A stretch of 64,000 bases of DNA from an uncultured bacterium (GTDB lineage Bacteria; UBP4; UBA4092). The first letter of the stretch is position 1; each line of letters opens with the position of its first letter. The DNA lies in NCBI GenBank assembly GCA_964644695.1, contig CAZXWN010000001.1, forward strand, positions 118,869 through 182,868, in the 5' to 3' direction. Both the position numbers and the translations under genes were made by a program. This document shows positions 34,545 to 44,960 of this stretch, piece after piece. Below the pieces are notes generated by a model. The model was not told where the DNA came from and did not search any database. It was given only the letters and a program-made list of their open reading frames with translations.

Positions 34545-37310
34545 TTGATGTGGTTAAAACTTCGAATCATATTTTATACGGTTGCTTTAATGTTGTTAAT
34601 GCTATTGGGTGTTTATTTCTCAACTCAATATATATTAACAACTCAATTTACCGCTTTAAAAAAAGCCCACCTTTACGAAAAAATTAATATTGTAGAAAAT
34701 GTGTTGCAGAATGAAATAGATAAATTCAATAAATCTGTCCACCAATATTCTCAAAAACAGACTTCATTTGATTCAAAAGAATTATCAATATTTGATGAAA
34801 TACCTGAAATACAGTGGGTGATTACTAGAAATTTAAATCAGTCTTTTCAGATAAATGGAAATCCGAAAATATCAACTAATCTAACTAAGGATTGGAAAGA
34901 TTGTATTGCTCATCTTATACAGGATTATGACAAATCACCTCTATTATCAAGAAGTGGATGCTTCATACATAAAGAACAGATGTATTTGGTATATGAAGAG
35001 AGAATAAATAGTCCGAATCAGGAAAAATTAGAAACAAGTCTTTATATTAAGCCTTTCGATATTTACAGTGGTGGATTAATTAGTAAAAGTCTTACCGAGA
35101 ACTATCATCTTTCTTTCATTCCTATACCCACTCCTGATAAAGCAACATACTCAATTTATCAAGATTTACTTAGTAGTAAATCATCAACCCAATTTGTTTT
35201 TAGTACACAGACTGTCTATGGTTATTTTCTATTGAATGACGTATCCGGTAGCCCCATGCTACTAGGTAGATTGGATATGGATAGGGCTCTCTATATTAAT
35301 ACTCAAGTCAAGCTTCGAAACATTATCTTATTAATATCTGTAGGCAGTTTGTTTGTTTCAATAGTTTTTATTGGTTTGATTTGGAAGCTTCTAATAACGC
35401 GTATTGGAGTTCTTAAAGATGAAATATTGAAGATAGGAACACAAGATGATTTGACTGCCAGAGTAAGTGTTCAAGGCGAAGATGAATTAACACAACTCTC
35501 AATGGCTGTTAATCATACTTTAGAGCGACTAAATGATTCTCATGTTGAATTGATGGCCAGAGAAGAGTATTTATCGGCGATTGCAGAAGTGAATGATTTG
35601 TTATCAAAATATCCCTTAAGTAAGGAATTATATACCCGAATACTTGAACCTCTTGGGAAAATAGCTAAAGCTGACCAGGTTTTTTATTTTGACATTATGA
35701 CGGGTGGAGATAAAACCATTCATGCGACACCCATAGGCTCTTGGACCTCTGAAGGGATTTCCAATATCGAGAGTGATCCTCAGGTACAGGATTTGCGAAT
35801 TGAGCATTGGCTTGGCCCCATGTTTGTTCATTTAGAGTATGGTCAAATTGTTCATGGTCATACAACTGAAATGCCAGAGCCTTTTCAAACTTTTCTAAAA
35901 AAATATGATAACAAGACGATTTTATTATTACCCATGATGTTGGAAGGGAAATGGATAGGTTTTCTTGCTTTTAATCACATTCGACAGGAAAAGAATTGGA
36001 AGGCAAAAGAAATAACAACTTTGATAACTGCAGCTCAAGTGTTAACTCTGGCTATTAATAGAAAGGTGCAAGAGGAAAAACATTTTCATTTATATGAAAT
36101 AATGCAGAAAGACATGAAAATAGCCAGTGAAGTCCAAAGTTACTTGATACCCTCAGATCTTCAAGTATTCAGTGATTTGATGGTTTGTTCCAAATATTCA
36201 CCATCATCTCAAATTGGTGGAGATTTGTACGATGTGATAAAAGTCGGGCTGCATGATTATTTTGTTTGTATGGGAGATGTCTCTGGGCACGGTGTTCAAT
36301 CGGCTTTGCAAATGTCTGCAGTAAAAGCAATGATCAGTTCAATTGTAAAAAGTAGTAGAGGTAGTATTGCTCCCTATGAAATTGCAAATCGTTTGAATGA
36401 ATTGCTATTACCAGTACTTTCTTCTCACAGTTATTTAACTATTATTATGGGGTATCTAAACACAGTAAAGGGTGAGTTTCATTATATAAATGCGGGGCAT
36501 CCCCCCCTGTTGCTTTACAAGACTAAAAACCATCAACCAGAATACCATAGGGCAGAAGGTTCCATTCCTATTGGTTGGATGCCTATGATGAATTATTCTT
36601 TAAGTGATGAATCTTTGGTTCAGCTAGAGTCTGGAGATATATTGATTCTTTATACGGATGGTTTTTTAGAGGCAGAAGATGAGCATGGAGAACAACTGGG
36701 AATTGCAGGGATAAAGAATATTTTGGCGGAAAAACTGCATCCCAGTGATTGTCTCTTATTACCACATCACTTTTTCCAATACCTTATACAGAATAATTAT
36801 CAAGTAAATAAGGATGATTTTTCATTACTCACTCTGCAGATGTATGACTATGAAAAAAGGACTTTAACATTAGTTGTTCCACCAACGGTTATGGATCCAG
36901 CTGATTCCAACCATATGTCACAGCAATTAAGTCAAATCCGCATTCAGATTAATAATCAGGTACAGGAGTGGACAGGTGATTCACATTATGCCAGCAGAGC
37001 GGAATTAGCCACCCATGAGTATCTGATGAATATTATCAGGCATGCTTATAAGGATCAGAAGAAAAGAGATGCCATCATCCAGTTGAAAGAAAGAAATGGA
37101 TTGATTTCATTGAAAATAATAGATTCAGGAATTAAATGGGAGCCTGATATATCGCCCGGCAGTCCTTATTCTGTATCTGATTCTATGTCATTAGAAGGGC
37201 GTGGGTTAAAAATTATTCAAGATTTAATACTGGATTATCAATATAAGCGTTATGAACCCTATAATGAAGTAATAATGGTTATGAATCCTAATGCTAAGAT
37301 AAATAGATAA
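34545..37310 (+). CDS. Membrane sensor fused to an RsbU-type PP2C phosphatase and an RsbW-type GHKL kinase (TM - periplasmic domain - TM - HAMP - GAF-like - SpoIIE/PP2C - HATPase_c)
   Basis: 921 aa. Two TM helices flank a periplasmic domain of about 225 aa. HAMP-like amphipathic segment after TM2. PP2C motifs GGDLYDV / CMGDVSGHGVQSAL / LYTDGF. C-terminal GHKL N-box EYLMNIIRHAY and G-boxes IIDSGIKW, GRGLKII. Confidence 0.7.
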   Translation: MMWLKLRIIFYTVALMLLMLLGVYFSTQYILTTQFTALKKAHLYEKINIVENVLQNEIDKFNKSVHQYSQKQTSFDSKELSIFDEIPEIQWVITRNLNQSFQINGNPKISTNLTKDWKDCIAHLIQDYDKSPLLSRSGCFIHKEQMYLVYEERINSPNQEKLETSLYIKPFDIYSGGLISKSLTENYHLSFIPIPTPDKATYSIYQDLLSSKSSTQFVFSTQTVYGYFLLNDVSGSPMLLGRLDMDRALYINTQVKLRNIILLISVGSLFVSIVFIGLIWKLLITRIGVLKDEILKIGTQDDLTARVSVQGEDELTQLSMAVNHTLERLNDSHVELMAREEYLSAIAEVNDLLSKYPLSKELYTRILEPLGKIAKADQVFYFDIMTGGDKTIHATPIGSWTSEGISNIESDPQVQDLRIEHWLGPMFVHLEYGQIVHGHTTEMPEPFQTFLKKYDNKTILLLPMMLEGKWIGFLAFNHIRQEKNWKAKEITTLITAAQVLTLAINRKVQEEKHFHLYEIMQKDMKIASEVQSYLIPSDLQVFSDLMVCSKYSPSSQIGGDLYDVIKVGLHDYFVCMGDVSGHGVQSALQMSAVKAMISSIVKSSRGSIAPYEIANRLNELLLPVLSSHSYLTIIMGYLNTVKGEFHYINAGHPPLLLYKTKNHQPEYHRAEGSIPIGWMPMMNYSLSDESLVQLESGDILILYTDGFLEAEDEHGEQLGIAGIKNILAEKLHPSDCLLLPHHFFQYLIQNNYQVNKDDFSLLTLQMYDYEKRTLTLVVPPTVMDPADSNHMSQQLSQIRIQINNQVQEWTGDSHYASRAELATHEYLMNIIRHAYKDQKKRDAIIQLKERNGLISLKIIDSGIKWEPDISPGSPYSVSDSMSLEGRGLKIIQDLILDYQYKRYEPYNEVIMVMNPNAKINR

Positions 37311-37349: not shown

Positions 37350-37682
37350 ATGACTCTTCAATTTGATAAACAAGGAAAAATTGGTTTAATACGACTCACA
37401 GGTCCTATTGATGCATCAAATGTGATGGACTTGAAAAAGAAATTTCAAGAGTGGATGAATGAGACCAGTTATTTTGTTATGGATTTAAATCAGGTTGATT
37501 TTATTGATAGTACTGGATTAGGTGGATTAGTAGCCTGTTTGAAATATGCATCTGAAGCGGGTGGAGATCTGAAGATTGCATGCCTCCAACCAAAACCCCG
37601 AATGGTATTTGAAATAACGCGGGCTTTTAAAATATTTGAAGTATATGATGATGTGAATGTTGCAATAGCCAGTTACAAGTGA
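37350..37682 (+). CDS. STAS-domain anti-sigma-factor antagonist (SpoIIAA/RsbV-like)
   Basis: GGAGG RBS 6 nt upstream of ATG 37350 (track ORF starts 37335). FIDSTGLGGL contains the conserved phosphorylatable Ser/Thr of the DST(G) motif. 110 aa. Confidence 0.7.
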   Translation: MTLQFDKQGKIGLIRLTGPIDASNVMDLKKKFQEWMNETSYFVMDLNQVDFIDSTGLGGLVACLKYASEAGGDLKIACLQPKPRMVFEITRAFKIFEVYDDVNVAIASYK

Positions 37683-37707: not shown

Positions 37708-39096
37708 ATGAAATGTCTTGTTTATTTAGGAGAACATGATACAGCCTGGGCATATCCGTATTTCAAGAAACTTCATCCGGCTATGCTCAATATTTTGAAT
37801 CGTCCTTATATTGATCATTTGTTGGATTTTTTGTGGGGTAATGGGTGTCAGGAAGTTCGGCTTATTTTAGCTAAACCCTCTCCCATGTTAGAAACTCGTT
37901 TATTCGATAGTCATTCCCATAAACTTAAATTAAGTTTTGGATTAGCACAGCCTGAGGATGACTTAGATCATATTTTTCTGAAAAATTGGTCTTTTTGTAA
38001 AGACACAAAATTATTAGTCATTAAAGGCTTTCCCTATTTAGCGGGTACCTTCGAGAGTCTGCTTGAATCAAATAAAGAGTGGGTAATCACAGAAGGTAAA
38101 ACTCGTATTTATTTCATTAACTCCCCCAATACTACTGCAGTCAATTTTAACCGTATCGAAACTGTATTTGTACCCGAGTCTTTAATTGTTTATTCAATTG
38201 ATTCACTGAAAAATTATTATGATTTATGCATGACCCGGTTATCTCTTCTTTTGAATGTGGAATCGAAAAAAGGGGTGTTGAAAGGAATTCAGGTTAATAT
38301 ACCCAAAAACAGTCGATTGGTTGCTCCCACTCTTTTAGGAAATCATTTGTATTTACATAAGATGACACTTATTGGTCCAAATGTTGTGATTGGAAGACAT
38401 GTGAGAATTGATTCGGGTACGAGCATCAAAAACAGTATTGTTTTTAATGATACCTATATTGGTCAGGATTTAGAAGTTAAGAATAAAATTGTTTTTCGGG
38501 ATAGGCTGATTGATCCCATATCCGGAGACATAGTCCACTTAGTTGATTCACGATTAATTGCACGATTGGAAGTTGAAAAAAAACACATCATTCGTCGGAG
38601 ACTTTTCCATATATTTTGGGGAGTGGTCTGGGGAATTGTATGGCTGATTCCGATGCTCCTTATTCATTCCGTATATATATTCTCAAAGAAACAGAACCCG
38701 AAAGAGTCCTTTTATGTAGACCATAACAGGACTCGTATGCTATTTCCAAAGTCTCTCGTAGAACCTGATTCCGGGATAGAGAAGATTTATTATCGTCTAT
38801 CGGGTGACAAATATAGATTGTTACCTGCTGTGCTAAAAGGACATATTGCGTTGGTGGGGCACCAGATGTTAAACATTAATCCAGAAAATTCACGTTATCT
38901 GGATGAACTCCCTTTTTATATCCCTGGAATATTCAGTCTTCCTGAAGCAAACGGTGTATTTGGTCAGAAAGAGCAGGCAGTGGTTGATGAGTTATATTAT
39001 AGTCGTCATTTTTCAGCCGGGCTTGACATGAAAATATTAGTAAAACAGTTGTTACGTCGTTTGTTTGTACCGTGGTCAAATGTTGAGGAGGATTAA
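37708..39096 (+). CDS. Fusion of a degenerate sugar-nucleotidyltransferase-like domain, a left-handed beta-helix, a reentrant/TM segment and a PglC/WbaP-type polyprenyl-phosphate phosphoglycosyl-transferase (Bac_transf) domain with altered catalytic residues
   Basis: N-terminus KKLHPAMLNILNRPYIDHLLDFL..GCQEVRLI aligns with NTP_transferase, but the GGxGTRL loop is replaced (GEHDTAWAYPYF). Hexapeptide repeats at 210-265. Hydrophobic reentrant segment RRRLFHIFWGVVWGIVWLIPMLLI. C-terminus LSGDKYRLLPAVLKGHIALVGHQ aligns with PglC [23 protein letters not shown], and IPGIF/DMKIL with PGITG/DLKI. Asp-Glu becomes Asp-Lys, and PRP becomes HQM. Confidence 0.55.
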   Translation: MKCLVYLGEHDTAWAYPYFKKLHPAMLNILNRPYIDHLLDFLWGNGCQEVRLILAKPSPMLETRLFDSHSHKLKLSFGLAQPEDDLDHIFLKNWSFCKDTKLLVIKGFPYLAGTFESLLESNKEWVITEGKTRIYFINSPNTTAVNFNRIETVFVPESLIVYSIDSLKNYYDLCMTRLSLLLNVESKKGVLKGIQVNIPKNSRLVAPTLLGNHLYLHKMTLIGPNVVIGRHVRIDSGTSIKNSIVFNDTYIGQDLEVKNKIVFRDRLIDPISGDIVHLVDSRLIARLEVEKKHIIRRRLFHIFWGVVWGIVWLIPMLLIHSVYIFSKKQNPKESFYVDHNRTRMLFPKSLVEPDSGIEKIYYRLSGDKYRLLPAVLKGHIALVGHQMLNINPENSRYLDELPFYIPGIFSLPEANGVFGQKEQAVVDELYYSRHFSAGLDMKILVKQLLRRLFVPWSNVEED

Positions 39097-43544: not shown

Positions 43545-44960
43545 GTGCAAAAGGCCCATTTACTAATAGTCGATGATGAAAAAAATATCATTTCATCGTT
43601 AACACGTCCTCTTACCCGTGAAGGTTATAATATTCGGTCTGCATTAACCGGGCAGGAAGCTTTGGATATTCTTCAAAGAGCTGAGGATGGAACTGAAGAA
43701 GATATTGATATTTTGTTAGTCGATGTTTGGTTGCCTGACATTGATGGTTTACAAGTACTCCAGAAGGCCAAAGAGATTAGTCCGGACATTATACCAATTG
43801 TCATGTCAGGGCATGCCAGCATTGATACGGCTGTAAAGGCTACCAAGTTGGGCGCTTTCGATTTCATGGAGAAACCTCTCAATTTAGATAAAGTGTTACT
43901 TCTGATTGAGCATGCACTTAAATATCGAAGATTAGAGGAAGCTAACAGAGGGTTCCGTCAAGCTATTGAACAGGAATACCAGATTATTGGACAGAGCCAA
44001 CAGGTTCTCGACATGATAGAACGGATTTCCATTGTAGCAGCGACTCCGGGACGTGTCCTCATCGCCGGTGAAAATGGAACTGGAAAAGAATTGGTGGCGC
44101 GTGCTATTCATGCTAACAGTAATCGCCAGGAAGGTCCTTTTATTAAAGTGAATTGTGCAGCCATACCTAATGAACTGATTGAAAGTGAGCTTTTTGGCCA
44201 TGAAAAGGGTTCCTTTACGGGGGCGCATGAAAGAAAAAAAGGTAAGTTTGAGTTGGCTAATGAAGGGACTATTTTCCTGGATGAAATTGGGGATATGAGT
44301 TTACCCACACAAGCAAAGATTCTCCGGGTATTGACTGATAATGAAATAGACAGGGTAGGGGGGACAAGACCTATTCGAGTTGATGTTAGGGTCATTGCCG
44401 CTTCTAACAAAAATCTTGAGGAAGAGATAAAAAAGGGAAACTTCCGAGAAGATTTGTATTATCGCTTAAATGTAATTCCTTTCATGGTACCCCCATTACG
44501 AGAACGTCGTGAAGATATTCCCTTATTAGCGGGGCACTTTCTAAAACTCTATTGCCGTGAGACGCAGACCAAAGCGAGAAAATTTGACACCTCAGCTTAC
44601 AGGGTATTGATGAATTACGCCTGGCCTGGTAATGTACGAGAGCTGAAAAACATTGTTGAGCGTGTGGCAATCCTGACCCGTTCTGATGTGATTGGGGAAC
44701 GTGAAATCTCTAGTGTTTTGCCTCCCTCGGCAGTGATGACACAATCTTCAGTAAATAATACAAATCATGATATTTCCTGTTTTCCAGAAAAAAGCCTCAA
44801 AGAGCTTTGTGAAGAATATGAGAAAAAAGTTATTGTATCAGCATTGAAGGCTCATGATGGGAATGTCAGTAGAACTGCTGAGGTTCTGGATTTGGAACGT
44901 AGTCACCTTTATAAGAAATTGAGGCAATATAATATAAGCAAAGCATCTGATGCCGAATAA
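43545..44960 (+). CDS. Sigma-54-dependent response regulator (NtrC/Fis family: receiver, AAA+ domain and Fis HTH)
   Basis: Receiver (LLVDVWLPDIDG), Walker A GENGTGKE, GAFTGA-type GSFTGA motif, Walker B FLDEIGD, and a C-terminal HTH. Confidence 0.8.
   Translation: MQKAHLLIVDDEKNIISSLTRPLTREGYNIRSALTGQEALDILQRAEDGTEEDIDILLVDVWLPDIDGLQVLQKAKEISPDIIPIVMSGHASIDTAVKATKLGAFDFMEKPLNLDKVLLLIEHALKYRRLEEANRGFRQAIEQEYQIIGQSQQVLDMIERISIVAATPGRVLIAGENGTGKELVARAIHANSNRQEGPFIKVNCAAIPNELIESELFGHEKGSFTGAHERKKGKFELANEGTIFLDEIGDMSLPTQAKILRVLTDNEIDRVGGTRPIRVDVRVIAASNKNLEEEIKKGNFREDLYYRLNVIPFMVPPLRERREDIPLLAGHFLKLYCRETQTKARKFDTSAYRVLMNYAWPGNVRELKNIVERVAILTRSDVIGEREISSVLPPSAVMTQSSVNNTNHDISCFPEKSLKELCEEYEKKVIVSALKAHDGNVSRTAEVLDLERSHLYKKLRQYNISKASDAE

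Follow-up and report, generated by a model that had tools for sequence, protein, structure and literature searches.

To our knowledge, little is understood of how bacteria restrain the opening committed step of surface-glycan synthesis, which consumes the carrier lipid, and few post-translational regulators of phosphoglycosyl transferases (PGTs) have been described, namely the EpsW-EpsZ pair and the STAS-PGT fusions of cyanobacteria. Nor do we know of a target for several STAS-only partner-switch proteins of polysaccharide and biofilm loci (SypA, HmpV), or of an NTase-LbH-PGT-like gene in the syp locus. Neisseria PglB, a PGT plus a left-handed beta-helix (LbH) acetyltransferase, is an example of the group termed Bi-PGTs. 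Among proteins that combine a nucleotidyltransferase (NTase) fold with an LbH domain, the catalytically dead paralogues GMPPA, eIF2B gamma/epsilon and KONJAC act as regulators, and GMPPA senses GDP-mannose for GMPPB.

Bi-PGTs are bifunctional monotopic PGTs that unite the PGT catalytic domain with a further functional domain (PMC10942596). The small monotopic PGTs, such as PglC of Campylobacter, the catalytic domain of WbaP and the Bac_transf family (PF02397), carry a catalytic Asp-Glu dyad, which in PglC is Asp93-Glu94 (PMC10186338). In Myxococcus xanthus, EpsW activates the PGT EpsZ via direct binding (PMC12802240). Natural fusions of STAS to Bac_transf are known from cyanobacteria, among them All4160 and XssP, for which genetic as well as in vitro results point to STAS phosphorylation, set by a REC-SpoIIE phosphatase and a kinase, as the functional switch (PMC13555669). 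All2285 is a further fusion of this type, the phosphatase is HenR (REC-SpoIIE) and the kinase Alr3423, and coupling of STAS to a PGT has been described as rarely found outside cyanobacteria (PMC13555669). The syp polysaccharide locus of V. fischeri encodes a STAS-only protein (SypA) and a dual Ser kinase/phosphatase (SypE), and the target of this STAS protein is unknown (PMC8256260).

The window (the whole 64-kb stretch of DNA that was analyzed) carries an operon of four genes on one strand, in the following order:

34545..37310, + strand: membrane sensor, 921 aa, with HAMP, PP2C/SpoIIE phosphatase and RsbW-type Ser kinase (HATPase_c_2) in one polypeptide
37350..37682, + strand: STAS-only protein of the anti-sigma-antagonist type, 110 aa (Pfam STAS, E = 2.4e-20)
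37708..39096, + strand: pseudo-NTase/LbH/pseudo-monotopic-PGT fusion, 462 aa
39096..40022, + strand: metallophosphoesterase of the YaeI/LpxG type, 308 aa (Pfam Metallophos, E = 2.6e-8)

Gaps of 24 nt and 25 nt separate the first three genes, the third and fourth overlap by 1 nt, and no terminator lies within the operon; the overlap of the phosphoesterase start codon with the stop codon of the fusion gene suggests translational coupling. The sensor matches the Pfam families SpoIIE (E = 4.6e-34), HATPase_c_2 (1.3e-12) and HAMP (4.9e-7), and its hydrophobic segments (1-32 and 255-291) correspond to two transmembrane segments around an outside domain of about 220 aa. For the STAS gene, the gene call starts at ATG 37350 (110 aa), while the listed ORF begins at GTG 37335. 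Its product scores 70.7 bits against NCBIfam TIGR00377, over the cut-off of that family, and has a phosphorylatable Ser within DFIDSTGLG; the motif Asp-Ser-x-Gly-Leu-Gly is invariant in 22/22 partner STAS proteins. The STAS module of the window has both the Ser of DS(S/T)G and a co-encoded PP2C phosphatase and RsbW-type kinase, the last two residing in the 921-aa protein. As regards a sigma-factor output, no sigma-factor gene is present in the operon or among its immediate neighbors. A sigma-54 activator at 43545-44960 belongs to a unit separate from the STAS operon. The phosphoesterase matches NCBIfam YaeI (1.2e-25) and LpxG (1.1e-18), both under their own cut-offs. It neighbors the fusion gene also in the related loci L032 and L068, and in L056 it is divergently oriented. 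This operon context, which is absent from an earlier note made from the sequence of the window, is the main functional clue.

That note had described the third gene as an NTase-LbH-PGT fusion with altered catalytic signatures. The ORF exists, with every residue quoted there in its place, and the three-domain architecture was borne out by profile searches and an AF2 structure. The gene and its product are divided as follows:

37708..38262, + strand: NTase (Rossmann-like) fold, residues 1-185, GxGTR(L) loop and PKP lysine absent
37729..37764, + strand: residues 8-19, GEHDTAWAYPYF, in place of the NTP loop
38263..38577, + strand: left-handed beta-helix, residues 186-290, of the eIF2B-epsilon/GMPPB C-terminal type (Pfam LbH_EIF2B, Hexapep)
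38572..38679, + strand: re-entrant membrane helix of the monotopic PGT fold, residues 289-324, helix-break-helix with Pro315
38578..39093, + strand: PGT-like domain without catalytic signatures, residues 291-462
38806..38811, + strand: Asp367-Lys368, at the position of the Asp-Glu dyad (profile alignment to PglC)
38860..38868, + strand: His385-Gln-Met387, at the position of Pro-Arg-Pro (profile alignment to PglC)

Pfam detects LbH_EIF2B (E = 1e-7) and Hexapep in the 462-aa protein, and a Bac_transf match (E = 7.7e-6) that, at 26.0 bits, is just below the 27-bit gathering cut-off and is confined to profile positions 94-175 of 179, the second half. There is no match to NTP_transferase (PF00483) at E <= 1. 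A canonical member of the family, at locus L008, scores 37.4 bits with Bac_transf and 27.5 bits with NTP_transferase, the latter over residues 22-118 only. A profile of the C-terminal domain of the family matches PglC over the whole fold (E = 2.5e-11) and WbaP (E = 7e-11), and the full-length family profile matches the NTase-LbH protein tlr0611 (E = 1e-31). The AF2 model (pLDDT 93.1, pTM 0.81) shows short beta-strands at 190-286, and helices at 289-311 and 313-324 that flank Pro315. Hydropathy analysis finds a single hydrophobic segment (298-327), which aligns with the re-entrant helix of PglC, and the proline is conserved in the family. These domain assignments are far above chance; an NTase fold is followed by a left-handed beta-helix, and the overall fold of a monotopic PGT is present. 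The best structural and profile matches of residues 1-290 are the NTase-LbH proteins tlr0611 (PDB 8x7s), ST0452 and GMPPB, and also GMPPA, eIF2B gamma/epsilon and KONJAC.

The catalytic residues were defined from published work (PMC10186338, PMC10942596) and from 66 true PGTs co-encoded with family members, and motifs were counted in 116 full-length family representatives. When the family motif LSLDK(Y/F)PLL..VL.G.L.LVGN..L is aligned on PglC, DE becomes DK and PRP becomes HQM in the window protein, in agreement with the assignment of the earlier note. That note had also named the LDELP segment (398-402) as a place where a regular dyad might lie; this is ruled out, as the segment is variable in the family and aligns between PRP and PGITG, and the family alignment contains no conserved Asp-Glu pair elsewhere. 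The remaining landmarks of the domain are VLKG at 375-378, HQM at 385-387, PGI at 406-408 and DMKIL at 440-444. In the NTase part, alignment to tlr0611 and the family counts agree that the G-rich NTP loop is gone: other residues stand in place of GKGTR, of the PKP lysine and of the GD metal-binding motif, and a GxG(T/S)R loop is absent in 116/116 members. Trp14, which lies within the replacement sequence, is conserved across the family.

The substitutions seen by the earlier note are real, but they are not peculiar to the window gene. At the dyad, the pair is DK in 57 members and DR in 27 (together 84/116), and DE in none of the 116; the first residue is Asp in 98/116 (84%) and substituted in the other 18, and the second is Lys or Arg in 100/116 (86%). 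PRP occurs in 0/116 members; where its first Pro would be, 65 members have N, 15 have D, 14 have Q, 10 have H and none has P. The losses also go further than was first described, since two entire motifs (F.F.KFRSM and FKMKxDPRxTxxG) are deleted. These KF(R/K)(S/T)M and DPRxT blocks are missing from 115-116 of the 116 members, and the W, Q and R of WQ..GR are replaced, although all three motifs are invariant in the 66 co-encoded PGTs. Only about 13 of roughly 100 positions that are invariant across those genuine PGTs are kept. The substitutions are a conserved signature of the whole family rather than a one-off mutation, and constraint persists at the old active site. The conservation of Asp367 and Lys/Arg368 could mean ligand binding or residual chemistry instead of pure scaffolding.

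The fusion had been called unusual, and it is indeed uncharacterized, but it is not rare. At E < 1e-30 there are 85 cluster representatives, from Cloacimonadota, Lentisphaerota, Chlorobiota, Desulfobacterota, Armatimonadota, Myxococcota and other phyla. A word-indexed homology search with the single protein returned only itself, the same search with the family profile gave 12 matches and no informative new architecture, and a scan of genome contigs with the single protein gave no match. In the literature covered, outside which the catalogue of Bi-PGT fusions lies, no published description of the fusion family, of a pseudo-PGT, of an NTase-PGT fusion or of tlr0611 was found. Chlorobium and Chlorobaculum members are named 'NDP-sugar synthase' or 'nucleoside-diphosphate-sugar pyrophosphorylase' in NCBI and UniProt.

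Compared with the small monotopic PGTs, the family has Asp-Lys/Arg in place of the Asp-Glu dyad and Asn/His-x-x in place of PRP, has deleted KFRSM and DPRxT and lost WQ..GR, and the window protein carries an N-terminal NTase-LbH module that those enzymes lack. Like the Bi-PGTs, it carries on the cytoplasmic side a domain of monotopic PGT fold fused with a second domain from glycan pathways; however, both halves of a Bi-PGT are active enzymes, whereas neither half of the window protein has a catalytic signature. The fold is retained without the catalytic loop, as in GMPPA and eIF2B gamma/epsilon, and by analogy with these proteins the NTase-LbH part is likely to serve regulation rather than catalysis. 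The window protein differs from the NTase-LbH proteins in its extra membrane-embedded PGT-like domain and in its putative partner, which is a STAS protein.

A search with a 12-sequence alignment retrieved 80 related loci, spread over at least 8 phyla, whose gene neighborhoods were compared. A STAS gene is adjacent to the fusion gene in 74/80 loci, mostly directly upstream (in some Victivallaceae loci a PGT gene lies between the two), and 67/80 have a canonical small PGT next to it. In 48/80 loci a further pseudo-PGT domain is encoded, here fused with a WecG/TagA glycosyltransferase; an RsbW-type kinase is present in 30/80 and a PP2C phosphatase in 25/80. For example, the Cloacimonadales operon reads GT4-GT4-pseudoPGT:WecG-PGT-epimerase-STAS-target, where the target is the fusion-family gene, and the Chlorobaculum cluster reads HK, REC-PAS-PP2C, pseudoPGT:WecG, PGT, STAS, target (again the fusion-family gene), STAS, RsbW-like kinase, GT2, acetyltransferase, Wza-like exporter, GT4 and GT8. 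In the Chlorobi clusters, the phosphatase and the RsbW-type kinase are separate genes and stand alongside export genes. In the window, neither a PGT homolog nor a polysaccharide cluster was found near the fusion gene within the 64 kb, and the four-gene arrangement is kept in L032 and L068, relatives from UBP4 and Aminicenantes.

These loci resemble the cyanobacterial STAS-Bac_transf system in placing a STAS switch, a PP2C phosphatase and an RsbW-type kinase with a PGT-fold protein of a polysaccharide pathway, and the phosphatase of the Chlorobi clusters is of the same REC-(PAS)-SpoIIE type as in the HenR system. The cyanobacterial proteins carry STAS and a PGT-type (Bac_transf) enzyme in one chain, whereas here the STAS protein and the small PGT are separate and an extra pseudo-PGT/pseudo-NTase protein stands between them; a shallow search found no natural fusion of STAS to the family. 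The window STAS protein resembles SypA in being STAS-only with a phosphorylatable Ser, with a polysaccharide context and no sigma factor in either case, and the 921-aa sensor resembles SypE in uniting kinase and PP2C phosphatase in one polypeptide, although SypE is a cytoplasmic response regulator and the sensor a HAMP membrane protein. EpsW-EpsZ is likewise a case of post-translational control of an initiating monotopic PGT by a small phospho-regulated protein, but there a receiver-domain regulator acts on a large PGT and no pseudoenzyme takes part, unlike the STAS-pseudoenzyme route proposed below.

The 462-codon ORF is intact, without indels and of the same length, in three independent assemblies, and comparisons among them gave dN/dS values of 0.18 and 0.31. 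The gene is functional and under purifying selection, and these values, together with the intact frame, rule out a pseudogene. Its dN/dS is the highest in its syntenic block, where it is also the fastest-evolving gene: identity to the L032 orthologs is 32% for the 462-aa protein, 59% for the STAS protein and 82% for the ABC ATPase. When dN/dS is calculated domain by domain, substitutions are so few (e.g. dS 0.009 for the PGT-like part versus L083) that noise makes the values unusable. The window protein is a divergent member, matching 35 of 48 strongly conserved family positions (family median 42) and without the family motifs RWG and Y.LPGY.

The association of the family with STAS and PGT genes is observed directly, and taken with the dead domains it indicates that the 462-aa protein is probably a regulator of surface-polysaccharide synthesis and not an enzyme. 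The earlier note had offered either a regulatory scaffold or a divergent enzyme; a STAS gene and a genuine small PGT accompany the family almost obligatorily, which makes the scaffold the better of the two. On balance, we lean towards placing the protein in a widespread, as yet undescribed family of triple pseudoenzymes anchored in the membrane, and towards a role as a non-catalytic adaptor of a STAS circuit for polysaccharide initiation. From its place at the cytoplasmic membrane face, such an adaptor would control the first membrane step of the pathway. The HAMP-PP2C-kinase sensor would fix the phosphorylation state of the STAS protein at the Ser of DSTG, unphosphorylated STAS would dock on the pseudoenzyme, probably at its NTase/LbH module, and the PGT-like membrane domain would pair with and gate the genuine small PGT or its lipid-carrier intermediates. 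From the adjacency in 74 of the 80 loci we infer the contact with STAS, and we likewise infer a contact between pseudoenzyme and PGT and the direction of regulation. In the lineage of the window, the module may have parted from the PGT and become coupled to the YaeI/LpxG-like phosphoesterase, which could be its local output.

The same gene context is as compatible with an input as with an output, and the protein might instead be a ligand-sensing pseudoenzyme that binds undecaprenyl phosphate (Und-P), Und-PP-sugar or an NDP-sugar, either in the degenerate PGT pocket with its Asp and Lys/Arg or in the NTase pocket, and reports the supply of carrier or precursor to the STAS/kinase/phosphatase module. 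The constraint at the former dyad (Asp in 98 and Lys/Arg in 100 of the 116), the retained re-entrant helix and PGT scaffold, and nearest structural relatives that include the allosteric pseudo-NTase complexes GMPPA/GMPPB and VTC1-KJC would suit such a role. However, with the NTase nucleotide-binding loop and lysine gone and the UDP-sugar- and phosphate-binding PGT motifs (KFRSM, DPRxT, PRP, WQ..GR) deleted or replaced, little is left of either known ligand site, and the circuits already own sensor domains (HAMP and a periplasmic domain in the window, REC-PAS with a histidine kinase in Chlorobi), so that we consider a sensor unlikely. The conserved Asp367, the consistent rather than random change of Glu to a cationic residue, the preserved PGT fold and membrane insertion, and the purifying selection could all be reconciled with a divergent enzyme, in which Asp is the nucleophile and Lys/Arg stands in for Glu and Mg2+ in a metal-independent phosphoglycosyl transfer, phosphotransfer or hydrolysis on a lipid-linked substrate. 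This is more improbable still: so few PGT-invariant positions survive (about 13 of about 100), the PRP arginine, the lysine and arginine of KFRSM and the DPRxT and WQ..GR(S) blocks are all missing, the Asp itself is replaced in 18/116 members, and a canonical PGT that already supplies the activity nearly always co-occurs.

Two further readings carry very little weight. Decay of the gene towards a pseudogene, in a module that lost its PGT partner in this genome, would fit the most divergent gene of its block, with the highest dN/dS there, lost family motifs and no nearby PGT; yet the frame and length are unchanged in three assemblies with dN/dS well below 1 (0.18-0.31), the AF2 model is very confident, the gene overlaps the next by 1 nt in a tight operon, and the four-gene arrangement persists in the UBP4 and Aminicenantes relatives, all of which make a decaying remnant very improbable. 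A membrane-tethered NDP-sugar synthase (a sugar-1-phosphate nucleotidyltransferase), as the database names of the Chlorobium and Chlorobaculum members and the clear NTase fold would have it, is barely credible, given that the PKP lysine and GD motif are replaced and the window protein has no Pfam NTP_transferase match; a genuine enzyme of this kind is rejected because no family member has the GxGTR(L) loop. The name 'NDP-sugar synthase' is probably wrong for these proteins, and the family flags a probable systematic misannotation in public databases.

Returning to the adaptor reading, a bolder extension of it, which we offer tentatively and regard as rather more doubtful than the adaptor role itself, is that the STAS-only partner-switch proteins of polysaccharide loci have their missing direct target in the fusion family, an adaptor of dead PGT and NTase domains that responds to STAS phosphorylation by gating the small initiating PGT, with degenerate PGT folds serving as membrane assembly modules. 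If so, degenerate PGT domains, including the one on the WecG/TagA partner, would gather the first enzymes of the glycan pathway around one active PGT, and STAS control of PGTs would be a pan-bacterial principle, here in split form. The family is a concrete candidate for linking PGT regulation to STAS-only proteins that lack a target, and within the literature searched it would give the monotopic PGT superfamily its first pseudoenzyme on record. The variant in the window, in which switch and adaptor are retained and the PGT neighbor has given way to a YaeI/LpxG-type phosphoesterase, hints at a second kind of output.

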